From: Kineococcus radiotolerans SRS30216 = ATCC BAA-149
GTDB taxonomy: Bacteria > Actinomycetota > Actinomycetes > Actinomycetales > Kineococcaceae
Reading direction: 5' to 3'
Assembly (NCBI RefSeq): GCF_000017305.1
Contig: NC_009664.2
Location: 2,430,001-2,462,000 of the forward strand
Length of the DNA stretch: 32,000 nt
A program made the translations under genes and the position numbers. The notes under the pieces are model-generated. The model ran no database searches. It saw only the letters and a list, made by a program, of their open reading frames with translations, and was not told the origin of the DNA. The first letter of the stretch is position 1, and the number at the start of each line of letters is the position of its first letter. Positions 11,980 to 32,000 of this stretch are shown here, piece after piece.

Positions 11980-12015
11980 GTACCGAAAGTAATCAGCGAT
12001 GAGCGCGCTGTCGAC

Positions 12016-13407: not shown

Positions 13408-13588
13408 GGGACCTCCTCGATCGGCGGGACACGTCCACCCCAGGTTGCCGCACGTCGTGCGGGGGTGGCCCAGCGGGCGCCGGGTACAGCCAGCACCACC
13501 TCGTTCGGGTAGCCGAGGGGATGGGACGGACCGGCCGCGAGAACCACGATGGATCACGTCAACCACCCCGCCGTTCCCAGGAGTCGTC

Positions 13589-13822
13589 GTGAAGGACCCG
13601 TACGCGATCGAGAACCCCGCGGACCGCCGTGGAGCCGTCCCGCCGCCCCCCGCCCCGACCCGTTCCCGCCCGCTCTGGGCGTGGGTCCTGCTGGTCGTCG
13701 GTCTGCTCGTCAACGTCGCCGGATCGGCCGGGACGCTGCCGCTGGCCGTCGGGGTGACCGGCGGGGTGACCGCCCTCGGCGGCATCGTCGGCCTGGTCAC
13801 CGCCCGCCGGTCCCGCCGGTGA
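13589..13822 (+). CDS. Small membrane protein (two predicted TM helices), hypothetical
   Basis: GTG at 13589 follows AGGAG. 77 aa with hydrophobic segments 'LWAWVLLVVGLLVNVAG' and 'LAVGVTGGVTALGGIVGLV'. Its stop overlaps the GTG of the ABC ATPase (GTGA at 13819-13822). Confidence 0.45.
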   Translation: MKDPYAIENPADRRGAVPPPPAPTRSRPLWAWVLLVVGLLVNVAGSAGTLPLAVGVTGGVTALGGIVGLVTARRSRR

Positions 13823-14565
13823 ACGCGCTCCCGCAGCAGCTCCGGCGGTCCGCCCCGGCCCTGGATCCGGTCGGGGCGGAACCTCTCGCGGTGGAACTGG
13901 ACCACGTCACCCGCGCCCACCCCGGGGGGATCGTCGCCCTGCGCGACGTCTCGCTGCGGGTGCCGCGCGGGCAGTTCCTGGCCGTCACCGGGTCCTCCGG
14001 TTCCGGCAAGAGCACGCTGCTGCAGTGCGCCGCGGGCCTCGACGTCCCCACCAGCGGCCGCGTCCGCCTCGCCGGCACCGACCTGACCGGGCTCGGCGAG
14101 ACCGCCCGCACCCGGTTGCGCCGCGACCGCGTCGGGTTCGTGTTCCAGGCCTACAACCTGCTGCCCGCGCTCACCGTCGCCGACAACATCACCCTGCCGC
14201 TGCGACTCGCCGGGCGCGCCCCGGACGTCGAGCGGGTCCGCCGGCTCGTCGACCGCGTCGGGCTGGGCGACCGGCTCGGGCACCACCCGGCGGAACTGTC
14301 CGGCGGTCAGCAGCAGCGGGCGGCCATCGTCCGCGCCCTGGTCACCGACCCCGCCGTGGTCTTCGCCGACGAACCCACCGGGGCGCTGGACCCGCGCACG
14401 GGCGCCGCGGTGCTGGACCTGCTGCGCGACCTGGTCACCGAGCTCGGGCAGACCGTCGTCATGGTCACCCACGACCCCGCCGCCGCCTCCCGCGCCCACC
14501 GCACGCTCGTGGTCGAGGACGGCCGCATCACCGACGACCGCACCACCGACGACGAGGGGAACTGA
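13819..14565 (+). CDS. ABC transporter ATP-binding protein (MacB/LolD-like)
   Basis: Walker A 'GSSGSGKST', Q-loop 'GFVFQ', signature 'LSGGQQQR', Walker B 'VVFADEPTGALD' and H-loop 'VMVTHD'. Confidence 0.9.
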   Translation: MNALPQQLRRSAPALDPVGAEPLAVELDHVTRAHPGGIVALRDVSLRVPRGQFLAVTGSSGSGKSTLLQCAAGLDVPTSGRVRLAGTDLTGLGETARTRLRRDRVGFVFQAYNLLPALTVADNITLPLRLAGRAPDVERVRRLVDRVGLGDRLGHHPAELSGGQQQRAAIVRALVTDPAVVFADEPTGALDPRTGAAVLDLLRDLVTELGQTVVMVTHDPAAASRAHRTLVVEDGRITDDRTTDDEGN

Positions 14566-14566
14566 C

Positions 14567-17035: not shown

Positions 17036-17038
17036 GGC

Positions 17039-18259
17039 TCACCAGTCGTGCACGGTCCCGTCCGCCAGCCGGTTCACCGGCAGGTACGCCGGGTCGTAGG
17101 GGTGGGCCGCGGCGAGCTCCTCGTCGTAGTCCACGCCGATCCCCGGCGCCTCACCCGGGTGCAGGTGGCCGTCGGTGAACGTGTAGGCGTGCCGGAACAC
17201 CTCGTTCGTGGCGTCGGTGTGCCCGGAGTACTCCTGGATCCCGAAGTTGTGCACGGCGAGGTCGAGGTGGATCGCGGCGGCCATGCCGACGGGGGAGATG
17301 TCCTCCGGTCCGTGGATGGCGCTCTTGACCTGGTGCTGGGCGGCGAAGTCGAACAGCTTCCGCAGCGCGGAGACGCCGCCGAAGTGGGTCACCGCGGAGC
17401 GGGCGTAGTCGATGAGCTGCTCGGCGATGAGGGTCTGGTAGTCGAAGACGGTGTTGAACACCTCGCCCACGGCCAGCGGGGTGGTGGTGTGGTGGCGGAC
17501 GAGGCGGAACGCCTCCTGGTTCTCCGCCGGGGTGCAGTCCTCCAGCCAGAACAGGTCGTAGCGCTCGACGTCCTTGCCCAGCTTCGCGGCCTGCAGCGGG
17601 GTGAGGCGGTGGTGGGCGTCGTGCAGCAGGGGCAGTTCCGGGCCGAACTCGTTCCGGACCGCTTCCAGCACGGTCGGCAGGTGGCGCAGGTAGGCGGGGG
17701 TGTCCCAGTCCTCCACGACGGGCACGGCCCGCTGGTCCAAGCGGGTGGGGTTGTGGGCGATGGCCTCGCCGGTGTGCACGCCGTAGACCTTCCGCAGCCC
17801 GGGGACGCCGGTCTGGACCCGGATCGCCTGGTACCCCTCGGCCTGCCGGGCGCGGACGGAGTCGAGGAGTTCGGGGATGTCGCGGCCGTTGGCGTGCCCG
17901 TAGGTGCGGACCCGCTCGCGCGAGGCGCCGCCGAGCAACTGGTACAGCGGGAGGTTGGCGACCTTGGCCTTGATGTCCCACAGGGCGACGTCGACGGCGG
18001 CGATCGCGGCCATCGTCACCGGCCCGCGCCGCCAGTACGCCCCCCGGTACAGCGACTGCCAGGTGTCCTCGATGCGGTGCGGGTCGGTGCCCAGCAGCAG
18101 GGGGACGACGTGCTCGCGCAGGTAGGCGACGACGGCCTGCTCACGGCCGTTGAGGGTCGCGTCGCCGAGGCCGGTGACCCCCTCGTCGGTGGTGATCCTC
18201 AGGGTGACGAAGTTGCGGCCGGGGCAGGTGACGAGGACGGTCGCGTCGACGATCTTCAC
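17039..18259 (-). CDS. manD: Enolase-superfamily D-mannonate dehydratase (ManD/GalD-like subgroup)
   Basis: The track ORF is trimmed to the GTG at 18259 (AGGAG upstream). '[39 protein letters not shown]' and '[25 protein letters not shown]' match the ManD subgroup closely. Confidence 0.9.
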
Positions 18260-18288
18260 GGTTCTCCTGGAGCTCGGGGTTGCGGGCC

Positions 18289-19155
18289 TCAGCCCTTGGT
18301 GGCGCCGGCGGTCAGACCCGCGACGAGGTACTTCTGGCCGAACACGGCGGCCAGCAGCACGGGGACGGTCATGAGGGTGGCGGCGGCCATGAGACCGCCC
18401 CAGTCGGTGCTGGCGTAGGAGATGAAGGTGAACAACGTCACCGGCATCGTCTGGGTGTCCTCGTCGGAGAGGATGAGGGCGAACATGAAGTTGTTCCAGC
18501 TCGCGATGAACGCCAGCAGCGCCGCGGTCGCCGTACCGGGCGCGGCCAGCGGCAGCGCGATCCGCAGGAACGCCCCGAACGGGGACAACCCGTCGGTGCG
18601 GGCGGCCTCCTCCAGCTCGACGGGCAGGCCCTCGAAGAACCCGATCATGATCCACAGGATGAGCGGGACGGCGACGAACATGTGGCTGAGCACCAGGACG
18701 GTGTAGCTGCCGACGAGGCCCACCTGGGCGAAGAGGTAGTACCAGGGCACGAGCAGCGAGATCGCCGGCACGATGCGCGCCACGAGGACGAGGGACCCGG
18801 TGCGCTGCATCGCGAACCGTCCCACCGCCCACGCGGCGGGGACGGCGATGACCGCGGCCAGCACCGTGGACACGACGCCGACGATCGCGGAGTTCCCCAG
18901 CGAGCGGAGGATCTCCCCGTCGGCGAGGACGTTGCGGAAGTTGTCCAGCGTGGGGGAGAAGACCAGCCCCACGGTGGGGTCGGTCACCTGGACGTTGGTC
19001 TTGAACGCCGCGGCGATCATCCACACCACGGGCGCGACGATGACGAGGCAGACCAGCGTGATGGCGATCGCCCGCAGCGCTCCCCACGGGGAGCGCCGGA
19101 CCACGGGGCGCGGAGCGGGGCGGGGGTCGAGGCGGGTGGCGGTCGCGGTGCTCAC
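18289..19155 (-). CDS. Carbohydrate ABC transporter permease (MalG-like)
   Basis: Has the EAA loop '[27 protein letters not shown]' and six hydrophobic segments. The GTG start at 19155 overlaps the upstream stop (GTGA). Confidence 0.9.
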
Positions 19156-20102
19156 GAGCGGGTCCTTCCGGAGCGGGCGCGCAGGACGAGGACGACGCCG
19201 ATGATGAGGAGGGTGAACAGGACGAGGACGGCCGCGGCGAGCCCGTATTCCTGGTAGTCGAAGGTGAGGCCGTAGGCGTAGACGTTGAGGGTCTCGACCT
19301 CGAAGTCGGACCCGCCTCCGGCGCCCTTGGTGGCGTAGAGGATGTCGAACGTCTTCAGCGCGTCCACGGCCCGCAGGATGAGCGCGGTGAACAGGGTCGT
19401 CGACAGCATGGGCAGGACGACGAACCGGAACCGCTGCCACGCGTTGGCCCCGTCGACGACGGCCGCCTCCTCCGGTTCCTCCGGCAGGGTCGAGAGCCCG
19501 GCGAGTAGCAGGATCGTCATCATCGGCGTCCACTGCCACACGTCGAGCAGCATCAGCACGCCGAGGGACTGCGAGACCGAGCCGAGGAACTCCTGGCGGG
19601 GCAGGCCGACGCCTTCCAGCAGGTGGTTGGCGATGCCGTTGGTGGGGTCGAGGATGAGCAGCCAGAGGATGCCGATGGCGACGGGGGTCGCCAGCAGCGG
19701 CACCATGAGGATCGTCCGGACGACGCGGGCCCCGGTGAACGCCTTGCGCATGAGCATCGCGATGGCCAGGCCGAGGATCGTCTCCAGGACGACGGCGCCG
19801 ACGGTGAAGACGGCGGTGCGGCCCAGCGCGGGCCAGAAGCGGCGGCCGTCGCCGAGGGCGTCGGCGAAGTTCTGCAGACCCAGGTAACGGCGCCCGGAGT
19901 TCACCGCCCCGAACGCGTCGGTGAGGCTGAGGTTCAGCGTGAACAGCAGTGGGAAGACGATCATCAGCCCGACGAACGCGAGCGCGGGGCCGAGCATGAG
20001 CCACTTCAGGCGCCGGTTCTGCTGCTCGAACGTCCGCGGCCGCTTCCCGCCGGGGGTGACGGTGAGCCGGCCGGAGGTGAGGTGGGGGGAGGTCGTCGAC
20101 AT
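19152..20102 (-). CDS. Carbohydrate ABC transporter permease (MalF-like)
   Basis: Has the EAA loop '[23 protein letters not shown]' and is hydrophobic throughout. The ATG at 20102 shares one nt with the upstream TGA. Confidence 0.9.
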
Positions 20103-21409
20103 CAGAACTCCTGCTGGCGGTTGTCGCGGACGAGGAAGTCGGCGAACTCGGCGTCGGCGTCGTCGGCGGCGAGGTCGACGTCCTCGCCGAGGATCCCGGC
20201 GACCAGCGGCCGCCCGACGATGTCGCGGGCCCGGCCGACCTGGATGACCTCGGGGCGGTCGTGGCCGGTGCCGTTCTCGGTGTTGACCCGCATCGCCTCG
20301 GCCAGTTCCGGCGGGAACGCCGCCGTCGTGGCGGGGTCGGCCCAGACCGACGTGCGCGCGCCGGGGATGCCGGCGGACTGGATCTCGGAGACCCGCTCGG
20401 GGCCGGCGGCCCACTGCAGGAACGTCCACGCCTCGTCCTGCAGCCGGGAGAACCCGTTCACCGCCAGCGCCCACGAGGGGACGTTGTAGGGGACGGCCCC
20501 GGCCGGTCCGGCGGGGAAGGGCGCGAACCCGACGGTGTCCATGACGGTGGAGATCGTGGGGTCGAGGAAATTGGTGTAGATGGCGTCGGCGTCGACGTAG
20601 AACGCGGCCTTGCCCTGGGCGAAGATCGGCATGGCCTGCTCCAGGCTCATGTTCGTCGCCCCGGGTGGGCCGGCCTCGTGCAGCAGTCGCCCGTAGTACG
20701 CGTATGCCGCGCGCGCCTGTTCGCTGCCGATGCCGGAGCGGCCGTCGTCGGTGGTGAAGTCGCCGCCGAAGGAGAACAGGAAGCTGGACCACTGGCTGAC
20801 CGCCCCGGCGCGCTGCCCGCGACCGACGTAGCCGAACGTCCCGGCGTCGCGGTCGGTGAGGGTGAGGGCCTGCTCGAGGAGGTCGTCGAGGGTCTGCGGC
20901 GGCGCGGCCACCAGGTCCTTGCGGTAGTACAGCGCGGGCCGTTCGGTGACGACGGGGACGCTGTAGACCGAGCCGCGGGTGGTGGAGCGTTCGCGCACGG
21001 CCGCCTGGACGTCGTCCCAGGCGAAGGCGGGGTCGGTGACCCGGTCGCTGAGGTCGGCCAGCCACCCGTTGCGGGCGAAGAGGAGCTGGTCCTGCAGGGG
21101 GCGGAGCATCATGACGTCGATGTCCGTGGCGGAGGCGTTGAGCTTGACGTTGTAGCTGCTGCCGAGCTGGTCGGCGGTGAGCATCTGCATGCTGACCCGC
21201 CGCCCGGACAGCGCCTCGAACTCGGGCAGCCGCTCGGCGATGGCCTGCGACCAGACGTGGTTGACCGCGGCGATGCGCAGCGGGGTGTCGGGGCCGACGG
21301 CGCCGCTGCCGGAACCGCACGCGGCCAGCGCCGCGGTGGTCCCCGCTCCGGCCGTCGCGGTCAGCAGGGCGCGCCGGGTCAGCGCGGGTGGTGTCGACGT
21401 CATCGTCAT
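20102..21409 (-). CDS. Carbohydrate ABC transporter substrate-binding lipoprotein (CUT1 family)
   Basis: Tat-like signal plus lipobox 'LTRRALLTATAGAGTTAALAACGSG'. The length and position ahead of two permeases fit an SBP. Start chosen at MTMTS (21409); the ATG at 21487 is an alternative. Confidence 0.85.
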   Translation of the reverse strand: MTMTSTPPALTRRALLTATAGAGTTAALAACGSGSGAVGPDTPLRIAAVNHVWSQAIAERLPEFEALSGRRVSMQMLTADQLGSSYNVKLNASATDIDVMMLRPLQDQLLFARNGWLADLSDRVTDPAFAWDDVQAAVRERSTTRGSVYSVPVVTERPALYYRKDLVAAPPQTLDDLLEQALTLTDRDAGTFGYVGRGQRAGAVSQWSSFLFSFGGDFTTDDGRSGIGSEQARAAYAYYGRLLHEAGPPGATNMSLEQAMPIFAQGKAAFYVDADAIYTNFLDPTISTVMDTVGFAPFPAGPAGAVPYNVPSWALAVNGFSRLQDEAWTFLQWAAGPERVSEIQSAGIPGARTSVWADPATTAAFPPELAEAMRVNTENGTGHDRPEVIQVGRARDIVGRPLVAGILGEDVDLAADDADAEFADFLVRDNRQQEF

Positions 21410-21433
21410 CCTCGGGTCAGGCCGGAGACCACT

Positions 21434-21460
21434 GGTCCAACTGGTCCTACCAGTTGGACC
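21434..21460. promoter_or_regulatory. Perfect 11-bp inverted repeat, candidate GntR/FadR-type operator
   Basis: GGTCCAACTGG-TCCTA-CCAGTTGGACC. Its centre, TGGTCCTACCA, fits the (T)GGT-n3-ACC(A) GntR-family half-site logic. It lies between the GntR gene stop (21491) and the SBP start (21409). Confidence 0.55.
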
Positions 21461-21490
21461 GTAGCTGGGCGCCGTCGGCGAGGTCAACCC

Positions 21491-22243
21491 TCAGAACGGG
21501 TGCTGCAGCAGGTGCTCCAGGTGCCGGTTGGCCATGACCTCCAGCGGCTCGTCCAGGTCCGGGCCGTACGTCCGCAGCCCCAGGGCCAGGTGCTCGCGCA
21601 TGTTCTCCCGCGCCAGCTCCACGTCGTGCGCGGTGATCGCGGCGAGGATCTCCGCGTGGTGCGGCACCCCCGGCTCCGCGATCGAGGGGTCCGAGTTGGA
21701 GCGCAGCATCATCTCGAACATCATCGGCCCGATCGACAGCAGCATGATCCGCAGCACCGGGTTCCCGCTCGTCACCGCGATCGCCTCGTGGAAGCCCAGG
21801 TCCGCGCGTGCCATCGCCACCGCGTCCGGCGCCTCCAGCACCGCCCGGTGCGCCGCCGCCAGCGTCGCCAGGTCCTCCTCCGTGGCCAGCTCCGCCGCCA
21901 GCCCCGCGCTCTCCACCTCCAGCGGCAACCGCGCCCGGATGAGCTGGCGCACCGTCGGCCGGCTCGCCCGGTACACCGCGTCGAAGCCCCGCGACTCCGC
22001 CAGCCCCGGCGAGCTCACGAACGACCCCCGCCCCGCCGCGACCTCGATGAGGTGCTGCGCCTCCAGCCGCCGCAGCACCTCTCGCACCACGCCCCGGCTC
22101 GCCGCGAAGCGCGCCGACAGCTCCCGCTCCGAGGGCAGCTTGTCGCCCACCGCGAGAGCACCGGTGCGGATCTCGTGCTCCAGCTCGCGGGCGATGCGCT
22201 CGGTGAGGAGGCCGCGGTGGGGGGAGACCGGGGCGGGAGGCAT
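21491..22243 (-). CDS. GntR family transcriptional regulator (FadR/FCD subfamily)
   Basis: The track ORF is trimmed to the ATG at 22243. Winged-HTH 'GDKLPSERELSARFAASRGVVREVLRRLEAQHLIEV' is followed by an all-helical FCD-like C-terminus. Confidence 0.9.
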   Translation of the reverse strand: MPPAPVSPHRGLLTERIARELEHEIRTGALAVGDKLPSERELSARFAASRGVVREVLRRLEAQHLIEVAAGRGSFVSSPGLAESRGFDAVYRASRPTVRQLIRARLPLEVESAGLAAELATEEDLATLAAAHRAVLEAPDAVAMARADLGFHEAIAVTSGNPVLRIMLLSIGPMMFEMMLRSNSDPSIAEPGVPHHAEILAAITAHDVELARENMREHLALGLRTYGPDLDEPLEVMANRHLEHLLQHPF

Positions 22244-22401
22244 GGGCGTCAGCGTAGGGCGCCGCCGAGCCCGCGTCCGCCCGCCTCGGCGACGCGCAGC
22301 GGTGGAACGGGGCGAGCTGATCTGCTTCGCTGACCGGAGTGGCTCGGGCCGGTCCACCGTGCCCCGGGTGGCGAGGGACGGCCCTCGACGGAGGAGGCGG
22401 G

Positions 22402-22581
22402 ATGCCGCAGTGGAGGTCCGTGCTGCAGCAGGCGCGGTTGGAACGGGTCGCGGCGGAGACCGCGCTGCAGGAGGCGATAGTCGCGGGCGACCTGGAGGCT
22501 GCGGACTTCGCGCGGATCTGGCTCGCCGACGCGCAGGCTTCCGTCGACGAGCTGGAGACGCGCTACCGCGACCAGCTGTGA
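22402..22581 (+). CDS. Small helical hypothetical protein (59 aa)
   Basis: ATG at 22402 is preceded by GGAGGAGG. The sequence is amphipathic and helical ('LQQARLERVAAETALQEAIVAGDLEAADFARIWLADAQASVDELETRYRDQL'). Convergent with macrodomain gene 2. No recognisable family. Confidence 0.35.
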   Translation: MPQWRSVLQQARLERVAAETALQEAIVAGDLEAADFARIWLADAQASVDELETRYRDQL

Positions 22582-22590
22582 TGCGGCCCG

Positions 22591-23031
22591 TCAGCCCCGA
22601 GTGACGACCACCAGCTCGACGGGGGAGTCCGCGACGGCCGCGGTCAGGACGTCGAGGACCTCCGCCCACACCAGCCCGCCGATGCCCGCACCGAGTCGCG
22701 GCACCCCGAGCGCACCGAGCCGCCGCGTCTCCGCGTCGACGAGTGCCGCGCGGACGCTGCGCTCCACGGCGTCGAGGCGGGCGTCCGCACCGGACTGCTG
22801 CTGGGTGGCGAGGTTGTAGACCACGACGTCCTCGGCCACCCACGGGAACACCTCGCCGGGCTGCAGGTCCCCGGCCGCGCACAGCGCCTGGTACGCCGCG
22901 TGCATCTCCGGCCAACGACGACGGAACTCGACCGCGATGCCACCGCGCATCGACCCGACGCAGTTGCAGCCGTGCCCCAGGGCGGGCAGCCCCAGGTCGA
23001 ACAAGTCGCCGATCACGGGTTTCAGCGCCAT
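22591..23031 (-). CDS. Macrodomain protein, paralog 2
   Basis: 'GDLFDLGLPALGHGCNCVGSMRGGIA', 'VVVYNLATQ' and 'LGVPRLGAGIGGL'. Collinear with the 3166-3624 product over its whole length. Confidence 0.85.
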   Translation of the reverse strand: MALKPVIGDLFDLGLPALGHGCNCVGSMRGGIAVEFRRRWPEMHAAYQALCAAGDLQPGEVFPWVAEDVVVYNLATQQQSGADARLDAVERSVRAALVDAETRRLGALGVPRLGAGIGGLVWAEVLDVLTAAVADSPVELVVVTRG

Positions 23032-23044
23032 CGTCCGCCTCCTC

Positions 23045-23905
23045 TCAGGTCGTCACGGAGACGGTTCCGACGTGCCGGTGCCGCGTCGCCCCCGTGCCGG
23101 GGTGGAGGTGGGCGTAAGCGACCTGGACGGGAGCCTCGACGCGGGCGATGAACTTCTCCACCTCCGCGACCCTGGCCGTGCTCGCGCGAGCCAGGTGGAC
23201 GAGGTACGGGTGCCGCACCCGGCTGTTCCGGAACTTCTCGTCGTCCCCACGGAGGTGCGTCAGCCCGTAGTCGAGTCCGAGCTCGACGACGATGGGCGCC
23301 TCGATCCGCCCGTCCCGGAACTGCTGCCGGCTGGCCCGGGCGAGCTGCGTCGGCGCCAGCACCACCAGGTCGAACAGACCCCGACCGCCGCCCTTGTGCG
23401 GCTGCGGACGGGTCTCGGGCCACTCCTTGTGGACCAGTTGCGTTGTCAGCCCGTCGCGGAGGGCCTGCCGGGCGGCGAGCAGCTCGTGCTCCTTGAGGAG
23501 GGAGAACAGCTCCGCGTGCAGGGAGTGCTCGACCCGGTGCAGGTAGGGGTTCGCCAGGAACCCGTCGACGAGAGCGCGGATCGCGAGCTCCACTCTGGGA
23601 ACGGCGTCAGCGATCCACCCCTCGTCCTCGGGGAGCACCTCGACCAACGGCTCCACCGCCGACCCGCTCGCGGCCGGGTCGTCCAGCAACGTCCCGCCGC
23701 GCTCGACGAGCCAGTCCCGCAGGGCGTCGACGTCGGTGAACTCGGCCATGAGCCCGACGCTGACCTCGGCGGTGACGGGGAGGCGGTACCCGACCTCGAC
23801 CCCGGCGCGGGGGGCGGCGTGGTGGATGCGGACCGTCTGCGTCTTCTGGCCGACGGCGTGCACCACCGTCCGGCCTGCGACGAGCGTCTTCTCTCGGGAG
23901 GCCAC
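23045..23905 (-). CDS. Hypothetical protein with no recognised domain (start uncertain: GTG 23905 or ATG 23749)
   Basis: High third-position GC is maintained from GTG 23905 to the stop at 23045. Ends 13 nt before macrodomain gene 2. Contains 'QLVHKEWPE...GRGLFDLVVL...APIVVELGLDY', which faintly resembles an E/D...E-x-K nuclease core but lacks the Lys. Confidence 0.5.
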   Translation of the reverse strand: MASREKTLVAGRTVVHAVGQKTQTVRIHHAAPRAGVEVGYRLPVTAEVSVGLMAEFTDVDALRDWLVERGGTLLDDPAASGSAVEPLVEVLPEDEGWIADAVPRVELAIRALVDGFLANPYLHRVEHSLHAELFSLLKEHELLAARQALRDGLTTQLVHKEWPETRPQPHKGGGRGLFDLVVLAPTQLARASRQQFRDGRIEAPIVVELGLDYGLTHLRGDDEKFRNSRVRHPYLVHLARASTARVAEVEKFIARVEAPVQVAYAHLHPGTGATRHRHVGTVSVTT

Positions 23906-23994
23906 TCGTCGACGGTAGGTCGACGGAACGGGCGCGGTCCGGATGCGGCGTGTCGGCGGCACCGTTCGTCCCCACCGCGCGGCGGCCGCAGCCT

Positions 23995-24372
23995 TCACGG
24001 GCCCTCGACGGCCACCAGGTCGCGGATCGCAGCGTAGTCGTCGAGGTTGGACGTCCAGACCGTCAAGTCGTGGGCGCGCGCCGTCGCCGCGATCAGCAGG
24101 TCGACGCGACGGCGCCGGGGCTTCCGCCCAGCCGCGACTTCCGCGGCGTCGATGTCCGCGTAGGCGCCCAGGACGCTTGCGGTGACGGGCAGCGGGTCGA
24201 ACGCCGACCGGAGGCGCTCGAACCGCACCCGCCGGACCGTGCGGACGGGACCCTCGGGCGCGGCGTGGACGCCGGTGAGCAGCTCGGCGAAGGTGAGGAC
24301 GGAGACCGCCACCTCCCCGTCCGGCCAGACGCCGTCGATGAGGGCGTTGGTGTCGACCAGGTAGGTGGTCAC
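23995..24372 (-). CDS. vapC: PIN-domain ribonuclease toxin (VapC)
   Basis: N-terminal 'YLVDTNALI', central 'TFAELL', and C-terminal 'DLLIAATARAHDLTVWTSNLDDY', the PIN acidic-residue pattern. The GTG start overlaps the antitoxin stop (GTGA at 24369-24372). Confidence 0.85.
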   Translation of the reverse strand: MTTYLVDTNALIDGVWPDGEVAVSVLTFAELLTGVHAAPEGPVRTVRRVRFERLRSAFDPLPVTASVLGAYADIDAAEVAAGRKPRRRRVDLLIAATARAHDLTVWTSNLDDYAAIRDLVAVEGP

Positions 24373-24680
24373 CCGGCGGTCGGTCCCTCGCTCCGCTGGG
24401 CGGCGCGGCCATACGGGTTGTCGAGCTCGTCGTCGAAGGTGTCCTGGACGTCCCGCTTCCACGCCCCTCGGTCTTCCGGGGAGAGCGGGGCGAGGTCGTC
24501 GAAGAGGTGCCGCAACGTCTCGGCGGGGACGAAGCGGTGTGGTTCCGTCGGAGGTGGGTCCATCCGCAGCACGCCGACGGGAGCGCCGTTGCTCGTCACC
24601 AGCAGGTGCTCACCGTCGCGGAGGGCGCGCAGGATCTGACCGGAGTCGTTCCGCAGCTCGCGCTGGCTGATGGTCCGCAC
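24369..24680 (-). CDS. Phd/YefM-type antitoxin
   Basis: 'MRTISQRELRNDSGQILRALRDGEHLLVTSNGAPVGVL' is the typical Phd/YefM N-terminal fold signature. It sits immediately upstream of, and translationally coupled to, the PIN toxin. Confidence 0.8.
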   Translation of the reverse strand: MRTISQRELRNDSGQILRALRDGEHLLVTSNGAPVGVLRMDPPPTEPHRFVPAETLRHLFDDLAPLSPEDRGAWKRDVQDTFDDELDNPYGRAAQRSEGPTAG

Positions 24681-24688
24681 GTAGTGGA

Positions 24689-24710
24689 GTGTAGCGCCGC
24701 CGTGCTACAC
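24689..24710. promoter_or_regulatory. Inverted repeat upstream of the antitoxin gene (candidate TA autoregulation operator)
   Basis: GTGTAGC-n8-GCTACAC, located 9-30 nt upstream of the GTG start at 24680. Confidence 0.35.
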
Positions 24711-24739
24711 CTGTCTGCACGTACTGGTGGGTCGCCCCC

Positions 24740-26477
24740 TCAGCCGGCGCTCACAAGCGAGGCTTGGGTGAAGAAGTCCGTCGGCATCGCGTGGCGCAAC
24801 CGCCAGGTGATGCCGATGGGCCGCTCGCCCTCGTGGGAGACGTAGTGGGCCGGCCCCAGGAACAGGTACGGCTCGACCCCGAAGTCCCCTGCTTGCGCTG
24901 ACGCGCGAACAGCAGGACGTGCGTCCCCATCGCCCGGTGGTTCAGGTAGCGCTCGCCTGTGGGGGAGGTGACCGTCGTCCGCGACTGCGACTCCCAGTGG
25001 AAGAGGTGCGGCGTCAGCGGGTAGTCCCGGTACATCGTCGAGGGTGAGTAGTCGGCCTCGGACTTGGTCAGCGTGATGAGCAGCGCGTCTGTGCGCCGCT
25101 TGGGTGCCCAGACGACCCCCTCGCGGAAGGACATCGGCGGTCGGGTGGCCGTGGCGACGCCGAGCGCGCTGACGATCTCGTCACGGGAGTAGCGGGCGTG
25201 GACGCTGAGGGGCAGGTCGGCGATCTCCCCGTCGAGCTCGCTCGTGGGGTGGCGGGCGGAGTCGAAGGTGAGGTCGACGAGCTGCGTCAGTTCGTCCCGG
25301 GCCGCGGGTTCCTGCCGCAGCAGGTCGAGGACCGCGGCCAGGTCGCCGGGAGCGCCGGACGGCCAGAGGGACGCGGTGAGCATCCCGGCGAGGTGGCGTT
25401 CGACGGGGGACAGCGTGTCGGCGGTGACGTCGTCGCCGAGCAACCGGGAGTACGCATCGCGACGCAGCCGGTCGTCGACGTGGGTGACGGCACGCACCCG
25501 CTTCAACAGCGCGGTCTCCGCGGGGCCGGCCGGTCGCGTCTCCGTCCCGGCGCGGCGGCGCAGGTCCGTCCACGAGCGGTTGCTGCCGAGCAGTTCCCGC
25601 ACACTGAGTCCGCTGACGGTGAGGAAGTCCGCGATGCTGTTCGTCGCCTGCGCCCGGACCTTGTTGACGAGCGCGGGGGTGCGCGGGCTGAGTTGCGCTT
25701 GATGCTCGTGACAACGCGTTCCTGCACCACCTCGTCGAGGACGATGGAGCACCCCGCCGGCAGGAACGGGAACCCCTGCTCGGCCTGGTGCTGCGGCGCA
25801 CCGCGGCTGACCCCGGTGAGCGCGCGGAAGCGGGTGTCGAAGCGGAAGTTGGCGTTCTGGTGGCTCACGAAGCCCAGCGTGGTCAGCACCGCCTTGCCGG
25901 GGGAGGTGCGCAGACCACGGCCGAGCTGCTGCAGGAAGACGGCTGAGGATTCCGTGGGCCGCAGGAAGAGGACGGTGTCCACCTGCGGTACGTCGACGCC
26001 CTCGTTGTAGAGGTCGACGGCGAAGAGGATGCGCACGTCGCCCTCCTTCAACCGCCGCAGCGCCGTTGCACGCTCCTCCGGGGTGCTGCTACCGCTGACG
26101 GCGAGCGCGTCGACGCCCGCCTCGCGGAAGACGCGCGCCATGTAGTGCGCGTGCTCGACGCTGACGCAGAAACCGATCGCCCGCATCGAGGTCACGTCGC
26201 CCACCCGGCGGCGCAGCTCCCTCAGCACCAGGCGCGCTCGGGCGTCGTCCCCGGTGTAGAGGTTGGTCAAGCCTTTGACGTCGTAACCACCGCGCTGCCA
26301 GGCCAAGTCGCTCAGGTCCGTGCCGTCGTCCACGGCGAAGTAGTGCAACGGCACGAGCAGATTGTCGGCGAGTGCGTACCACAGCCTCAGCTCTGCCGCG
26401 GTGCGCCCGTCGAAGAGCGCGCGGACGTCCTGCCCGTCGGCACGTTCCGGCGTCGCCGTGAGTCCCAGCAGCTCTAG
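24740..26477 (-). pseudogene. SF2 (DEAD/DEAH-type) helicase with a C-terminal DUF3427-like domain. It is 5'-truncated and carries two 1-nt frameshifts.
   Basis: Helicase motif III onward is present ('LGLTATPER', 'VDLYNEGVDVPQVDTVLFLRPTES', 'QQLGRGLR'). The reading frame breaks near 25693-25698 and again at the C4 run at 24886-24889. Restoring one G at the latter gives '...KQGDFGVEPYLFLGPAHYVSHEGERPIGITWRLRHAMPTDFFTQASLVSAG*', which I recall as the typical DUF3427 tail. Motifs I-II are missing upstream, where the IS begins. Confidence 0.8.
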
Positions 26478-27944
26478 TAGTACGTTGTTAGGTCTTGCCA
26501 AGGATGGTCGTCGCGTGGTGCGCTGTCGCGGTGACTCCTGAGGACCTCGAGGGCGTGCGCGAGCAGCTGGAGGACTTCGCCGCGGACGTCTTCGCGCCGC
26601 TGACCCGAGCCGATCAGCGAGCCAAAGGCCAAACCTACCTGCGCGGGCTGCTGCTGGACGGAACCCGCAAGTCGATGCAGCCGAAGGCCGAACGCCTCGG
26701 GGTGGACCACCAGGACCTGCAGCAGTTCGTGTCCTCCTCGACCTGGGACGTCAGCGCGGTGCGTTCTCGCATCGCAGGCAAGGCGGTAGAGGTGATCGAA
26801 CCGGTCGCGTGGGTCATCGACGACACTGGCTTCCCCAAGGACGGCAAAGCCTCGCCCGGGTCGCCCGGCAGTACTCCGGAACCCTCGGCAAGGTAGGCAA
26901 CTGCCAGATCGGCGTCAGCGTCCACGCCGTCACCCACACCGCCTCTTGCCCGCTGGACTGGCAGCTGTTCCTGCCCGGCAGCTAGGATACCGCCGCAGTC
27001 GAGAGCACTCTGGACGAGAGCTTGGATGGGGCAGAGACCAACGCAGGCTCGACACCGTGCGGTTGCAGCGCAAACGGGCGGGGATCCCCGACGAGCTGGG
27101 TCATCAGCCGAAGTGGCGCCTGGCGCTGGAGATGCTCGACGAACTCGCCGAGTGGGGTCTGTGTCCACCGGTGATCGCCACTGACGCCGGCTACGGCAAC
27201 AACGCTCACTTCCGCGACGCCCTCACTGAGTGGGGACTGTCCTGGATCGTGCAGGTCGAATCCGACCTGAGTGCGCACCCCGCCGACGCTGTTCCTGAGC
27301 TGCGCGAGTACCTCGGCGCCGGCCCGCGCGGCAAGCCGCGCTACCGCGACGCGCCGATGAGTTTGTGCCAGCACGCCCTAACAGCAGGTAGGGAGAACGC
27401 GCAGGAGGTCACCTGGCGGGCCGGTTCCCGCGACCAGCTCACCTCGCGGTTCCTCGCAATCCGCATTCGTCCGGCCGGGCGCAAGCACACCGCCCGACTG
27501 ACCGAGGACGGGTCCCTGCCCGAGCAGTGGCTGATCGCGGACTGGCCGCAGGAAGCGGACGAGCCGGAGGGGGCACCTCCCGCGTGCGGGGGAAAATACT
27601 GGCTCTCCAACCTGCCCGCCGACACCGCCCCGCCCGAACTGGTCCGCCTGGGCAAGATCCGCTGGCGCATCGAGCGCGACTACCGCGAACTCAAGACCGG
27701 CCTTGGCCTGGACCACTTCGAGGGCCGCAGCTTTACCGGCTAGCACCGCCACGTCACCCTCGTCACCGCCGCACACCTCTTCTGCACCCTGCTGCGCGCC
27801 GACCCGAAAGCGCGTGGCGCAGCTTGAGCACCTACGCCGTGCTGCGCCTGCTCCAGCAGTTGCTGGCCGCCTGGACCGGCACCTGCACCGTCTGCAGACA
27901 ACCCGTTCGGGACCGACCCCTCGTGCCGACCTAACGAAGTACTA
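26478..27944 (+). mobile_element. IS701-family insertion sequence, degenerate (non-autonomous)
   Basis: Terminal inverted repeats TAGTACGTTGTTAGGTC (26478-26494) and GACCTAACGAAGTACTA (27928-27944) match at 15/17 positions. Both ends are flanked by CTAG (26474-26477 and 27945-27948). The interior encodes a broken IS701-type DDE transposase. Confidence 0.8.
26495..27934 (+). pseudogene. IS701-family DDE transposase, inactivated
   Basis: 'YLRGLLLDGTRKSMQPKAERLG...QQFVSSSTWD...WVIDDTGFPKDGKASPG' continues after a 1-nt shift at the G run 26858-26860 as 'VARQYSGTLGKVGNCQIGVSVHAV'. There are in-frame TAG codons at 26983-26985 and 27741-27743, the latter where 'GWHRH' is expected. Further frame changes occur near 27000-27050 and about 27815. 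Confidence 0.8.
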
Positions 27945-27948
27945 CTAG

Positions 27949-28089
27949 GCCTGCCTCGATGGCGCCGGCAGGTCCGAGGTCGCACAGGCACCGAACAAGT
28001 GTGAGGCGGCCAGGAACAGTATTGAGGAAATTCGAGCAGTGCTTCACCGCGCCGTGGCCGGCATTGACACCTACAGTGCGTCACTCTGA
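27949..28089 (+). pseudogene. Possible 3' remnant of a gene cut by the IS
   Basis: An open frame runs from the IS edge to the TGA at 28087-28089 ('...EVAQAPNKCEAARNSIEEIRAVLHRAVAGIDTYSASL*'). It reads as protein-like helical sequence but has no start codon or upstream part. Confidence 0.25.
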
Positions 28090-28810
28090 CTTGGTGAGGC
28101 TGTCGGTCGTCGACCGACGAAAACGTTGACCCCGCTCGCCTCTCGGCAAGGTGAAGATGATCGGCGCTTCAACTGCGCCAAGCACGAACGGCGGTGACGC
28201 GCGGCGATTCGTCAGGTCCATCCTGACTGCGTCGTGAATTGTTCGTGTTCAACTGGGACGCTGCGGGCGGTTTAGAGGCGATGGCAAAACCTTCGCCGCG
28301 ATGGCTTGCCCTTCATGAGTGGCCCGGCACCCCATCCACCGGCTTTTTCAGGTTTTGCCTATTTCTAAGTGGCGCATCCGTTGGGGGGCGGTTCGACGTC
28401 TACGCTTAGGTCCTCATTGCCCTCCGATTTGAGCCCGCTGCACCATCCTCAGTAAGCGGCACCCGCTACTTAGGAAGGCTCGCTGACGCCCTAGCCCTGC
28501 GTCGGAGCCCTCACGCCCTTCACCGTGTCGGCCGGGGGCCATCAGTGGCAACTCGCCACGCCTGGCAGGCTCGCGCATCCCAGATGAGCACCGGATGAGA
28601 GTGCGACCTGTCCGACAGGACGCGTCCTAGCGAGCCATCCCTTAGGCTGCGGATGACTGCCGCTAACGGTGGCGCAGTCGCGCTGCAATGCGCAGTTGCA
28701 GGGTGTGTGAGGAAGGACGCCGTGGTTCGGTTGTCTGCGGCGACGGGGAGGCGAGTCGCGACCTTGGCGTGCTGCCGGCAAGACTCTTTTTCGGTTGTGG
28801 GGGATCCCCC

Positions 28811-31800
28811 ATGCCGCTTGCAGAACCGTGGGGCATGATGGGTAACGCCGTGAGCGGTCGCCCATCGTACGTGGGCCAACTTGTTTGGTGTGGTCAACCC
28901 TATGGCTGGGGTCGCGTGCGCGCCTTGACGGACTCCTCCGTCGAGGTCACATTTTTTGAATCGCCGGCACAACCGCATGTTCATACTGTTGACATGGCAT
29001 TATCCGATGCCGTCGCTGCAGCACTTCCCAAGCAGATCCGGGTGTATTGGGAGGATGGCGAACGGTGGCGCGTCGGGCGAGTTGTCGGCGCCGCCCCTCA
29101 GGGCGGGTATGCGGTCAAACCGCCTAATTCTCGGTATGCCTTACCTCTTCCCATTGAGCGTCTTCATGTCCGCTGGTCTCAACCGGTGGTCGACCCACTT
29201 GAAGTGCTCTTGGCGGGGGGGAATGAAAGCCCGCACTTCAGCGAAACGCGCCTTCCTTTCATCCGCGCTGTGACGACTCACCGGGCGGCCTGCTCCAGCA
29301 TTCCAGCCATTCTATCGAGTGCCGTGGAGTTGTACCCGCACCAGATCGAGACGGTGTTGCAAGTAATGCGTGATCCAATCCAGCGCTATCTCCTTGCCGA
29401 TGAGGTTGGATTGGGGAAAACAATTGAGGCAGGTCTGCTGCTTCGGCAATACCTGCTGGACAACCCCACCGGTTCCGTGGTTGTCATAGCCCCTGATGTC
29501 CTGCGGCGCCAGTGGCAGGATGAACTTCGAGCGAAGTTCTTCGTTGATGACTTTCCTCGTTCACGCCTGCGCATCGTGGCGCACGAGTCGCCACAACGCT
29601 GGTTCAGCGACACCCCGGAAGACTTTGTAATTATTGATGAGGCGCATCGCCTTGTGGGGCAACGGCGGTCGCTACAGGAGGTGGAAAACCTCCGCCGCCT
29701 CTGTCATGGGACTCCCAGGCTGCTGCTCCTCTCGGCGACGCCTGCCTTAAACAACGAACGAGCCTTTCTCGAGCTGCTAAATCTGCTCGACCCCAAGATT
29801 TATGACGTGGCCGATCTGGCCGGGTTCACCGCTCGAGTGCGTGCGAGACACGAGATTGCCAAGGCGTTCTATGCGCTTGATCCAGAGTTCCCCGAAACCG
29901 CCCCCTTCTACTTGGGGACGATTCTGCATGCCTTCCCAGGGGATGAGGAACTCGCGGCATTGGTTGGCTCTGTAGGGGATTCGGCCTACTCTGGATCCGC
30001 CGATTTCATCGACAATATCGGCCGGTTGCGCCGCTACGTTAACGAGACGTACCGACTGAACCGTCGAGTGGTGAGGCATCGCCGTGAGCGCGTTCTGACG
30101 GGAGTGCCGTGCGGACCCAACAGTCCTGAGTTCGAGGTCACCGGGCGCAGCGAACCGCAACTGCTTGTCCCCAACGATCCGGTAGGGGACCAAGCAGAAC
30201 TGTTCTTGGAAGAGTGGCGTCAGGACGTTGTCGATCACCTCAATGTCAGTGGCGCGCAGTTCACCGATGACTACGAAAACCTGTACGGGCTCTTCCTGGC
30301 GTCAGCGCGCAGTCCACAACACCTGAGTCAACTCATGCACGTGCGCCTATCCGCCATCGATCGCGAGGCTATGGTCTCGCAACTTAGTGACGCGGAGTGG
30401 GCAATGCTTACAGAGGCGCCCCCACTCCCCGCAGACCAACGGCTCCTCACGCAGTTGGCCTCACTCTCGCACGGGGATCACATCAGTGCTTTGATCCACG
30501 CCGTTCGTCCCGCATGCAAAAAGCATCAACAGATCGTCATGTTCGTGGACTCGACGCTTGTTGGACACCAGTTGGCTGCCGCGCTGCGCGCAAAGTTCCG
30601 CGGCCTCCAGGTGGCTGAGCACTTCACCGATCAGTCGCCTACGGAGCGCGAGGAGTCCGTGGCGCAGTGGAGACGTGGCAGTAGCCGCGTACTCATCTGT
30701 GATAGCAGCGCTGAGGAGGGCAGGAACTTCCAAGACGCGGACGCCATGGTGCACGTGAACCTCCCCTCCTCGGTCAACCGTCTCGAACAACGCATTGGAC
30801 GTGTGGACCGGCACGGCAGCGAAGGGGCAGCAGAGCAGTACGTGGTCGCCCCGGACTCCATTGAGTCTCTCACCGGAGCTTGGTTAGAACTGCTCCGTGA
30901 CGGCTTCGGCGTGTGGCGGACATCCCTAGCGAGCCTGCAGTACACCATCGAGGCTTTGCACCCGCAAATTCGCCATTCCGTCTTCACTCGCGGCGGGGAA
31001 GGCCTCGTGGACCTGGTGGAAGTCGTATGTGCGGAACTGACACGCAGTGCAACGGACATCACCGCAGAGGACCAGCTTGAGGCATCATTCCTTAGTGGCG
31101 GCGGCATCCATTCTCTCGTTGCCTTGGATCAAATCGAGACCGACTGGCCGCAGTTCGACGCAGCACTGAACGACTTGGCCTATAAAGCGGATGGAAGCCT
31201 TCAACTCCATCCACTGCCCGGCGGTGACCGCTTCACCCGCCGTTTCGAGCCAGGGGAGCGGCCCTTGCTTACCAGCCACCAGGTGCAAACAGCCCTTCCA
31301 GGGACCTGGGACACGCCGGGCAGTTGCAATCGCACCGCAGCGCTACGGCGGCCCGGACACCGAGTGCTTCGGTATGGATCGCCCCTGATCGACAGCCTCG
31401 CCACGTGGGTCGAACAAGACGACCGAGGACAAGCCAGCGCTCTGTGGCGACTGGCGCCCGGCCTGCCAGACGAGCAGGTCTACCTGGCCTTCGACTACCT
31501 CGTCGAAGGCGACGTCGGCGGCATTGCCCCGAACCTGGACCCCGACGAGAGCAGAGCACTGCGTCGCCGCCTCGACGGCTGGCTGGCGCCTTTCATGCAC
31601 CGGGTATGGCTGGATGCATGGAAGCAGGAGCCACCACTTCCGGGTCTCCTGCCCCTGCTCGAGCGCCGCTATGACCCACGCCCCCACATCGGCGACGTCA
31701 ACCTGAACCCCGACCGCATCGCGGCACTTCACCACCTGTTCGGCGGCGAGCGAGCATTTGGCCAGGCAGTGCGGCTTACCCACGCCGCCGCTCCGGGCAA

Positions 31801-32000
31801 CCTTCGCAGCCAACGCCGCGTCGATGCCCTCATCGAAGATGCCTGCGCCCGAGCACGCATAGACCTCCATGATGAGCTCGCCGTGCTCACTGCCCGAGAG
31901 GTAGCCGGTCTTGCTGACTCAACCGCCGGTCTCACCGAGGAACGCGTCGAGGCTCTCCTCAACGCGTGCCGGAATCCGCGTATCCGACTCCGCTCCGTGA
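28811..32000 (+). CDS. RapA/HepA-like SNF2-family helicase, 3'-partial (continues beyond the window)
   Basis: Not in the supplied track. Manual codon-by-codon reading of the frame (pos mod 3 = 2) finds no stop from the TAA at 28664-28666 to nt 32000. Motif I 'LLADEVGLGKTIEAG' (from 29390), motif II 'VIIDEAHRL' (DEAH at 29636-29647), motif III 'LLLLSATPALNN', motif VI 'LEQRIGRVDRHG' (30782-30817). The N-terminal 'YVGQLVW...GWGRVRAL...VEVTFF' and 'IRVYWEDGERWRVGRVVG' repeats resemble the RapA N-terminal Tudor/SH3-like pair. The start is uncertain: ATG 28811 (GGGGGA upstream), with 28688, 28835 and 28838 as alternatives. Confidence 0.85.
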   Translation, partial: MPLAEPWGMMGNAVSGRPSYVGQLVWCGQPYGWGRVRALTDSSVEVTFFESPAQPHVHTVDMALSDAVAAALPKQIRVYWEDGERWRVGRVVGAAPQGGYAVKPPNSRYALPLPIERLHVRWSQPVVDPLEVLLAGGNESPHFSETRLPFIRAVTTHRAACSSIPAILSSAVELYPHQIETVLQVMRDPIQRYLLADEVGLGKTIEAGLLLRQYLLDNPTGSVVVIAPDVLRRQWQDELRAKFFVDDFPRSRLRIVAHESPQRWFSDTPEDFVIIDEAHRLVGQRRSLQEVENLRRLCHGTPRLLLLSATPALNNERAFLELLNLLDPKIYDVADLAGFTARVRARHEIAKAFYALDPEFPETAPFYLGTILHAFPGDEELAALVGSVGDSAYSGSADFIDNIGRLRRYVNETYRLNRRVVRHRRERVLTGVPCGPNSPEFEVTGRSEPQLLVPNDPVGDQAELFLEEWRQDVVDHLNVSGAQFTDDYENLYGLFLASARSPQHLSQLMHVRLSAIDREAMVSQLSDAEWAMLTEAPPLPADQRLLTQLASLSHGDHISALIHAVRPACKKHQQIVMFVDSTLVGHQLAAALRAKFRGLQVAEHFTDQSPTEREESVAQWRRGSSRVLICDSSAEEGRNFQDADAMVHVNLPSSVNRLEQRIGRVDRHGSEGAAEQYVVAPDSIESLTGAWLELLRDGFGVWRTSLASLQYTIEALHPQIRHSVFTRGGEGLVDLVEVVCAELTRSATDITAEDQLEASFLSGGGIHSLVALDQIETDWPQFDAALNDLAYKADGSLQLHPLPGGDRFTRRFEPGERPLLTSHQVQTALPGTWDTPGSCNRTAALRRPGHRVLRYGSPLIDSLATWVEQDDRGQASALWRLAPGLPDEQVYLAFDYLVEGDVGGIAPNLDPDESRALRRRLDGWLAPFMHRVWLDAWKQEPPLPGLLPLLERRYDPRPHIGDVNLNPDRIAALHHLFGGERAFGQAVRLTHAAAPGNLRSQRRVDALIEDACARARIDLHDELAVLTAREVAGLADSTAGLTEERVEALLNACRNPRIRLRSV

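Follow-up and report, generated by a model that had tools for sequence, protein, structure and literature searches.

The window analysed here is a stretch of 32,000 nucleotides from Kineococcus radiotolerans SRS30216. Its right end contains an insertion sequence (IS), a gene-poor stretch, and a large open frame on the forward strand, which encodes the SNF2-type protein DpdE and is cut by the window edge. The features of this region are as follows.

26468–27954, + strand: IS701-family (DDE_5) IS of 1487 bp, with 27-nt terminal inverted repeats and DDE_5 in two ORFs
27955–28810, no strand: gene-poor stretch of 856 nt from the IS to dpdE, GC 0.63, with no recognisable gene
28811–32000, + strand, cut by the window edge: dpdE coding sequence (open frame, NCBIfam, PADLOC, and a 100% identical full-length product)
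28838 (ATG) and 28850 (GTG), + strand: alternative dpdE starts used by RefSeq (1073 aa) and GenBank (1069 aa), respectively
28874–29176, + strand: predicted tandem Tudor/Agenet/SH3-like N-terminal domain, aa ~22–122 (AlphaFold2 and Foldseek)
29336–30817, + strand: SNF2-type ATPase core (Pfam and motif positions)
29408–29422, + strand: motif I, GLGKT, aa 200
29636–29647, + strand: motif II, DEAH, aa 276
29732–29743, + strand: motif III, SATP, aa 308
30485–30817, + strand: Helicase_C, aa 559–669 (Pfam)
30788–30811, + strand: motif VI, QRIGRVDR, aa 660, inside Helicase_C
30818–32000, + strand: C-terminal α/β region of DpdE, aligned with the RapA C-terminal domains in the whole-protein fold comparison

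Translation of the forward strand gave 1111 stop-free codons from 28667 to 32000, and the closest in-frame stop on the 5′ side is a TAA at 28664. The possible starts are ATG 28811, ATG 28838, and GTG 28850. From the first of these, 1063 codons are read up to the window edge, in agreement with the original prediction that the frame is free of stops from 28811 to 32000 and already exceeds Escherichia coli RapA in length (968 residues in PDB ID: 6bog_A). The prediction had also pointed out that this large right-end ORF was missing from the ORF list, and it was missing because the frame runs off the end of the window. ORFs that leave a window edge call for a separate track. The Logan contig L084 matches window positions 18811–32000 with 0 mismatches over 13,190 nt, and the dpdE stop codon was read on it at the window-equivalent position 32057–32059. 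The gene closes normally 59 nt beyond the edge, with 19 further codons in the product; a breaking stop or frameshift just past the window, which might have made it another pseudogene, is absent. The full product from ATG 28811 has 1082 aa, and the Logan run-assembly collection contains the identical product in 26 of its blocks. dpdE is a real, intact SNF2-type helicase gene.

The DpdE equivalog model of NCBIfam (NF041062) matched with 929 bits (cutoff, 500) over profile positions 1–1041 of 1048, the rest of the profile falling beyond the window. Five DpdE models of PADLOC also matched, the best being PDLC02843 (1389.8 bits). The K. radiotolerans SRS30216 product in the databases (ABS05853.1/WP_275263104.1) differs from the window ORF solely in the start call. 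Its RefSeq name is "protein DpdE," which homologues across Actinomycetota also bear. The description of DpdE as the dpd cluster's member of the SNF2 superfamily dates from 2016 (PMC5699537). In the Dpd literature, the island of K. radiotolerans appears with DpdA as ABS05840, 13 accession numbers from DpdE (ABS05853). Dpd had been named among the candidate systems for the gene, correctly as it turned out, but the further suggestion that the gene encodes an undescribed defence component did not hold. dpdE is the SNF2-type helicase of the published K. radiotolerans Dpd island and is therefore an ordinary known defence gene; its identity was already known, and it is not a new kind of defence component. 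The giant unlisted ORF, the most striking one of the window, is thus already annotated and belongs to a published system, which is a clean negative.

The genes downstream of dpdE were read on contig L084, which is identical to the window over 18811–32000, and on contig L086. The original prediction had placed any partner genes downstream, outside the window, and extension past 32000 brought in further genes of the dpd island. The order after dpdE is dpdF, dpdG, dpdH, dpdI, dpdJ, dpdK, dpdD, an IS3 remnant (between dpdD and the que genes), yhhQ-queD-queE-queC, a 372-aa ORF, dpdB, and dpdA. The products assigned by NCBIfam are as follows.

Downstream, DpdF: 717 bits, cutoff 550
Downstream, DpdG: 109.5 bits, cutoff 80
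Downstream, DpdH: 921 bits, cutoff 450
Downstream, DpdJ: 1226 bits, cutoff 800
Downstream, DpdK (PLD family): 200 bits, cutoff 100
Downstream, DpdD: 553 bits, cutoff 300
Downstream, DpdB: 408 bits, cutoff 300
Downstream, DpdA: 462 bits, cutoff 200
Downstream, QueE: 337 bits, cutoff 240

QueC, QueD (PTPS), and the YhhQ-like transporter (Vut_1) were found by Pfam. The 231-aa ORF at the DpdI position and the 372-aa ORF before dpdB had no NCBIfam or Pfam match; they are putative DpdI and putative DpdC by position only. dpdE overlaps dpdF by 8 nt and is translationally coupled to it. All eight ORFs of the restriction operon from dpdE to dpdD reach their full reference lengths without a frameshift, and their stop and start codons overlap. 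The ORF is almost certainly dpdE, which heads the dpdE-F-G-H-I-J-K-D restriction operon of a Dpd (7-deazapurine-in-DNA) island with all the named dpd genes, dpdC being a candidate by position only.

The SNF2/RapA motifs I, II, III, and VI claimed for the product were all located. Their residues sit in invariant or nearly invariant columns among 56 homologues, and Pfam assigned SNF2-rel_dom, DEAD (aa 176–315), ResIII, and Helicase_C to DpdE. No solved DpdE structure was found in the PDB by sequence search, the closest entry being RapA (E = 1e-27). In the AlphaFold2 model of residues 1–173 (pLDDT 82; >90 over aa 21–120), two small β-barrels are predicted. The best PDB matches of this model in Foldseek were paired Agenet, Tudor, KOW, and SH3-like domains, among them tandem Agenet domains, the tandem Tudor domain of 53BP1, and KOW of Spt5; the N-terminal domain of RapA also matches (4s20_K, rmsd 4.6 Å over 112 columns). 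These models are consistent with the proposed RapA-like double Tudor/SH3-type N-terminus. The model of full-length DpdE has a pLDDT of 86.6 and a pTM of 0.87, and a search with it gave RapA as the best PDB match over the whole length (6bog_A, E = 9.6e-36; 8t0l_F, TM 0.55/0.63), the alignment covering 1104–1123 columns. Some DpdE homologues also match Pfam PF12137, which we take to be the RapA C-terminal family.

From ~27500 rightward, the GC content drops from 0.70–0.80 to 0.59–0.65. As predicted, dpdE is a lower-GC gene (~0.61, versus ~0.74 in neighboring genes) with many A/T-ending codons (32.4%, versus 5.8% in host genes). The codons singled out in the original prediction are 3- to 45-fold enriched in dpdE, and two of them, ATT and TAT, occur 0 times in 3819 host codons. 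The GC3 of dpdE is 0.68, compared with 0.92–0.98 in neighboring host genes, and the downstream genes of the island have GC values of 0.61–0.72 and GC3 values of 0.69–0.93. The closest relative of DpdE, from Pseudonocardia, shares 60% identity; for the flanking SBP gene, by contrast, Kineococcus sp. DK006 has a counterpart with 91% identity. dpdE and the whole dpd island are compositionally foreign, and a GC3 shift of this size (0.68 versus ~0.95) reliably marks defence islands that high-GC actinobacteria have acquired. The order dpdE-F-G-H-I-J also occurs in Kineococcus sp. DK005 and Micromonospora chersina; in Dactylosporangium roseum, dpdE-F-G-H is followed directly by a DpdJ-like helicase. 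Synteny with the nearest relative, Kineococcus sp. SYSU DK006, breaks at 22266; the 9.2 kb read past the break in that genome carry defence genes of other kinds and lack dpd genes. The dpd island, with an IS beside it, occupies a variable defence hotspot.

The IS701-family element forms the left boundary of the dpd island. Its transposase is split across two frames, a target-site duplication is absent, and contig L085 starts inside its right end. The decayed IS, decayed helicase, toxin–antitoxin pair, and ORF-poor stretch reported as the surroundings of dpdE are all present. Because its GC content is 0.63, the stretch 27955–28810 is already of island composition, and it presumably forms the island's left edge and the region upstream of dpdE. 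Its ORFs have no Pfam or PADLOC match, it shows no similarity to the genes upstream of dpdE in relatives, and a scan for σ70-like promoters, which does not cover actinobacterial promoter types, found none upstream of dpdE. Rfam matched neither the window nor L086; thus, a preQ1 riboswitch close to the que genes is absent. An N-terminal half of the type IV restriction enzyme, which is broken, was sought beyond the IS, and the ORFs of 27527–28984 had no PADLOC or Pfam match. Modification genes or dpdD upstream of dpdE within the window were likewise rejected: tblastn with DpdA/B, Que proteins, two unassigned ORFs of the Dactylosporangium modification block, and a small Micromonospora ORF 5′ of dpdE gave no match, and such genes sit downstream. 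The 317-aa ORF beside the DarG-like macro protein had no family match and no meaningful PDB match.

K. radiotolerans is one of the cases in which 7-deazapurines in DNA (dPreQ0/dADG) have been experimentally validated, according to PMC12235509, which cites Thiaville 2016. In the literature, preQ0 is inserted into DNA by DpdA/B and turned into dADG by DpdC, and DNA without the mark is restricted by DpdD–K together. In Salmonella Montevideo, the restriction phenotype stems from dpdD–K collectively, the roles of the individual proteins being unknown (PMC10164549), and the literature searched assigns no biochemical role to DpdE or the other Dpd restriction proteins. Here, we propose a role for DpdE based on its family and fold. 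DpdE may be an ATP-driven SNF2-type translocase or remodeller of double-stranded DNA rather than a strand-separating helicase. Acting with DpdF (RecQ-like), DpdJ (YprA/Lhr-like), DpdH/I (BrxC-like ATPase), and DpdG, it would scan or track along incoming DNA, and it would then open unmodified DNA to the PLD-family nuclease DpdK. The tandem Tudor-like N-terminus would be a docking or reader module. In RapA–RNA polymerase structures, the N-terminal domain of RapA contacts RNA polymerase. It is conceivable but quite unlikely that DpdE works through its tandem Tudor-like domain in an undescribed way, either as a reader of 7-deazaguanine or by docking on RNA polymerase and thereby coupling restriction to transcription. 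The Tudor-domain reading concerns the whole DpdE family, not the K. radiotolerans locus alone.

With RapA as the top solved-structure match by both sequence and whole-length fold, and with many DpdE homologues labeled "ATP-dependent helicase HepA" by JGI, the gene might be taken for RapA/HepA, the housekeeping factor that recycles RNA polymerase in the actinobacterial host. However, the RapA equivalog NF003426 reached 145.3 bits (cutoff, 576), spread over three partial matches and far below the DpdE score; the codon usage is foreign, the gene stands at the head of the dpd operon, and it is absent at the syntenic DK006 site over the 9.2 kb read. A syntenic housekeeping rapA, which the original prediction had considered, is not what lies here, and we give this reading virtually no credence. 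An SNF2 helicase of another system, namely DISARM DrmD, type 3 BREX BrxHII, or Zorya ZorD, is just as improbable. Weaker PADLOC matches (BrxHI|BrxHII, 126 bits; DrmD, 109 bits) point in that direction, and DpdE has been equated with BrxHII, the two being treated as homologous factors, in a preprint (10.1101/2025.09.15.676423). Nevertheless, the equivalog scores stayed below their cutoffs for DrmD (135.6 versus 610 and 109.9 versus 950) and ZorD (26.3 versus 1500). Within 25 kb downstream, no DrmA/B/C/MTase, PglX/BrxXI, or ZorA/B was found, and the neighbors are all dpd or que genes.

The gene may also be dpdE by descent but belong to a restriction arm that is silenced or decaying, cut off from its promoter by the IS, with the modification arm alone at work. 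The IS701-like element, which lacks a target-site duplication, borders the island on the upstream side, 856 nt from dpdE, the IS3 remnant interrupts the downstream genes, the adjoining type IV restriction gene is already destroyed, and the K. radiotolerans literature searched (PMC12235509) documents modification and not restriction. On the other hand, the unbroken state of the eight ORFs from dpdE to dpdD and the recurrence of the identical product in the 26 Logan blocks argue against decay, and a silenced arm seems rather unlikely. An intact dpdE heading the restriction operon of the Dpd island is the reading that we adopt.

As for other known systems, DpdE lies far under the ZorD cutoff of Zorya, and no Zorya genes follow dpdE in the 25 kb downstream. 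DISARM likewise has an SNF2-family ATPase, DrmD, in a multi-helicase defence system with a YprA-like helicase (DrmA/B versus DpdJ), but DpdE is far under the DrmD equivalog cutoffs and there are no DISARM partner genes at the dpd locus. E. coli RapA (PDB IDs: 6BOG, 4S20, and 8T0L) shares with DpdE the N-terminus of tandem small β-barrels, the Swi2/Snf2 core, the C-terminal α/β domains, and the motif I context ADEVGLGKT. The identity in the structural alignment is only 19%, and the resemblance is in fold only; DpdE is ~110 residues longer and belongs to a defence operon rather than a housekeeping context. The RapA-like, Tudor-bearing architecture has been published for a related defence helicase, BrxHII of type 3 BREX and BREX-related systems (PMC12839542), a Swi2/Snf2 helicase regarded as the counterpart of DpdE. 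A BrxC-like ATPase accompanies each of them, DpdH/I being the one in Dpd. BrxHII reportedly has a single Tudor domain and ~940 residues, whereas DpdE has a predicted tandem pair, as in RapA, and ~1080 residues. For modification, BREX relies on a methyltransferase as the partner enzyme and Dpd on a transglycosylase.

The closest counterpart is the Dpd 7-deazaguanine restriction–modification system (dpdA–K) of S. Montevideo, reportedly the subject of Thiaville et al. 2016. Compared with the alphabetical naming of the S. Montevideo genes, dpdD of K. radiotolerans comes after dpdK and the modification genes come after the que genes, and the K. radiotolerans island, unlike that of S. Montevideo, is flanked and interrupted by IS elements. 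The two share an equivalog-level, full-length DpdE with its SNF2 core, the dpdE-F-G-H-I-J-K operon with dpdD, dpdB, dpdA, and the preQ0 genes nearby, and the nature of a horizontally mobile island; nothing essential differs between them.

The ORF starting near 28811 on the forward strand and cut by the window edge is dpdE, an annotated gene of the published 7-deazaguanine DNA restriction–modification system Dpd, and is thus already known. The SNF2/RapA motifs noted in the original prediction are all in place (GLGKT at residue 200, DEAH at 276, SATP at 308, and QRIGRVDR at 660), and the Pfam domains SNF2-rel_dom, DEAD, ResIII, and Helicase_C were detected. The scores against the family models were as follows.

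Family model scores of the ORF product
NCBIfam DpdE equivalog (NF041062): 929 bits, cutoff 500
NCBIfam RapA: 145 bits, cutoff 576
NCBIfam DrmD: 136 bits, cutoff 610
NCBIfam ZorD: 26 bits, cutoff 1500
PADLOC best DpdE model: 1389.8 bits, no curated cutoff

The NF041062 match spans profile positions 1–1041 of 1048. Besides one 100% identical protein, a homology search with the window ORF returned hundreds of "protein DpdE" entries from actinobacteria. The identical cluster includes ABS05853.1 and WP_275263104.1 ("protein DpdE [Kineococcus radiotolerans]"), and the start call alone distinguishes its records (1069, 1073, 1082, or 1118 aa). A 2016 review (PMC5699537) gives ABS05840, 13 accession numbers away from DpdE, as the DpdA of K. 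radiotolerans SRS30216 and names DpdE as the protein of the dpd cluster that belongs to the SNF-II superfamily. The proposal of an undescribed defense component therefore fails; the rest of that interpretation (a defense-associated, horizontally acquired gene with partners downstream) stands.

The reading frame contains no stop in 1111 in-frame codons (28667–32000), the preceding in-frame stop being the TAA at 28664. Candidate start codons are ATG at 28811, ATG at 28838, and GTG at 28850. Because the similarity to relatives starts at 28868 and the 46 residues upstream of ~28841 are disordered in the full-length AlphaFold2 model, the start was placed between 28811 and 28850. With 1063 codons between 28811 and the window edge, the gene already exceeds E. 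coli RapA (968) as anticipated, and it is missing from the ORF list only because its frame runs off the window. On an identical contig, it ends at 32059 (coordinates continued past 32000), 19 codons beyond the edge. The expected compositional shift was also observed: GC content falls from 0.70–0.80 to ~0.60 from ~27500 onward, and A/T third positions make up 32.4% of dpdE codons versus 5.8% in 3819 codons of adjacent host genes, with each of the A/T-ending codons originally named being strongly enriched.

The full-length model of DpdE (pLDDT 86.6, pTM 0.87) found RapA as its best whole-length PDB match (6bog_A, E = 9.6e-36; 8t0l_F, TM 0.55/0.63), and the match to eukaryotic remodelers was restricted to the ATPase core. 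When residues 1–173 were modeled on their own (pLDDT 82), two small β-barrels were seen; the matches were to the RapA N-terminal domain and to tandem Agenet, 53BP1 tandem Tudor, Spt5 KOW, and kin17 SH3-like pairs, in agreement with the predicted double Tudor/SH3-type N-terminus. The resemblance to RapA is real, but it is a family trait already described; with the RapA profile score far below its cutoff, it is extremely improbable that the ORF is a housekeeping RapA. Equally remote is an assignment to the SNF2 helicases DrmD, BrxHII, or ZorD: the DrmD and ZorD scores likewise fall below their cutoffs. A 2025 preprint equated DpdE with BrxHII.

Extension of the contig and a partner search, the check proposed with the original prediction, gave a canonical Dpd island in which dpdC alone is unconfirmed. 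Logan contig SRR5887161_144 (loci L084 and L086) aligns to window 18811–32000 over 13,190 nt without a single mismatch, and the partners expected outside the window are encoded there.

Features downstream of dpdE (NCBIfam score versus cutoff)
DpdF: 717 versus 550 (equivalog)
DpdG: 109.5 versus 80 (equivalog)
DpdH: 921 versus 450 (equivalog)
L086 9309–10004 (window-equivalent 38516–39211): 231-aa ORF, putative DpdI by position only
DpdJ: 1226 versus 800 (equivalog)
DpdK, PLD-like: 200 versus 100 (equivalog)
DpdD: 553 versus 300 (equivalog)
L086 17743–18599 (window-equivalent 46950–47806): IS3-family remnant (HTH_21 and rve fragments) inside the island
YhhQ-like preQ0 transporter, QueD, QueE, and QueC: after the remnant, opposite strand
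L086 21258–22376 (window-equivalent 50465–51583): 372-aa ORF before dpdB, possible dpdC counterpart by position only
DpdB: 408 versus 300, after the 372-aa ORF
DpdA: 462 versus 200, after DpdB and cut by the locus end

The end of dpdE and the beginning of dpdF share 8 nt, and the IS3-family remnant separates dpdD from the yhhQ-queD-queE-queC block. No NCBIfam or Pfam model matched the 231-aa and 372-aa ORFs. All island genes downstream of dpdE have a GC content of 0.61–0.72. The order dpdE-F-G-H-I-J is common to this locus, Kineococcus sp. DK005, and Micromonospora chersina. Dactylosporangium roseum has the gene for a DpdJ-like helicase straight after dpdE-F-G-H, with the que genes and the modification genes that include dpdB immediately preceding dpdE.

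The site is a variable defense hotspot. Window 17038–22266 (enolase-superfamily gene, transporter genes, and GntR regulator) is collinear with Kineococcus sp. SYSU DK006 at 93% nucleotide identity, the flanking solute-binding protein being 91% identical, and synteny breaks at 22266, just past the GntR regulator. This protein identity and the identical DpdE records identify the host as K. radiotolerans SRS30216 or a near-identical strain. What follows the break in DK006 (L004 1–9222) is a different set of defense genes, with an Mrr-helicase restriction enzyme, a HATPase_c_3 protein, a C5 DNA methylase, and IS481 and IS5 transposases. The K. radiotolerans hotspot runs from a DarG-like macro protein through a 317-aa ORF, a PIN/Phd toxin–antitoxin pair, a SauUSI-like type IV remnant, an IS701-family element, and 856 gene-free nt to dpdE, so that the decayed IS and helicase, toxin–antitoxin pair, and ORF-poor stretch noted beside the gene were all recovered.

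Hotspot features and a related gene
22591–23031, minus strand: stand-alone macro-domain protein, matching PADLOC DarG
23045–23998, minus strand: 317-aa ORF, host-like GC3 (0.92), macro gene immediately downstream
24751–26474, minus strand: SauUSI-like type IV methyl-directed restriction enzyme remnant (helicase C-lobe and DUF3427)
26468–27954: IS701-family (DDE_5) element, 1487 bp, 27-nt terminal inverted repeats
3166–3624, minus strand: second stand-alone macro-domain protein, paralog (58% identical) of that in the hotspot

The 317-aa ORF had no Pfam, NCBIfam, PADLOC, or meaningful PDB match; it could be an uncharacterized toxin with the macro-domain protein as its putative antitoxin. The second macro protein lies in an ~8.9-kb segment (3163–12029) missing from the collinear DK006 locus. 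This segment also contains an AddAB/AdnAB-like pair (UvrD-helicase with PD-(D/E)XK nuclease, 5474–9439; PD-(D/E)XK protein, 8842–11979) and adjoins a large ADP-ribosylglycohydrolase fused to a DSP-phosphatase (12016–14913).

The type IV remnant is frameshifted over two frames and covers positions 363–904 of 945 of the PADLOC mREase_IV profile. Its homology ends at the left end of the IS, and the window lacks the N-terminal third, which presumably held the nuclease and first helicase lobe. The IS701-family transposase is also frameshifted and split over two frames. The element lacks a flanking target-site duplication, which suggests that it sits at a junction left by a rearrangement or deletion. 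Because another assembly contig (L085) begins inside its right end, the IS is probably multicopy in the genome. With this element upstream, the dpd operon might be a silenced passenger, which would bear on activity in this strain and not on identity; we consider this rather unlikely. DpdE itself is an intact family member of foreign origin with its operon partners.

According to the literature, DpdA/B replace guanine with preQ0 at specific sites, dADG is the product of DpdC, and DNA without the 7-deazaguanine mark is restricted by DpdD-K. The operon is split into synthesis (dpdA-C) and restriction (dpdD-K) parts (PMC12235509). Gedara et al. 2023 (PMC10164549) attribute restriction to DpdD-K and describe the individual roles as unknown, and no paper giving DpdE an activity was found in the literature searched. 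We propose that DpdE works as an ATP-driven translocase or remodeler of dsDNA: together with the other Dpd ATPases it would scan DNA and allow the PLD nuclease DpdK to reach unmodified DNA, and the tandem Tudor-like domain may serve as a docking or reader module. A single Tudor domain was reported for BrxHII, compared with the tandem pair in RapA (PMC12839542). The DpdE studied here appears, from the predicted structure, to retain the tandem pair as in RapA, the sole small nuance over the described trait.
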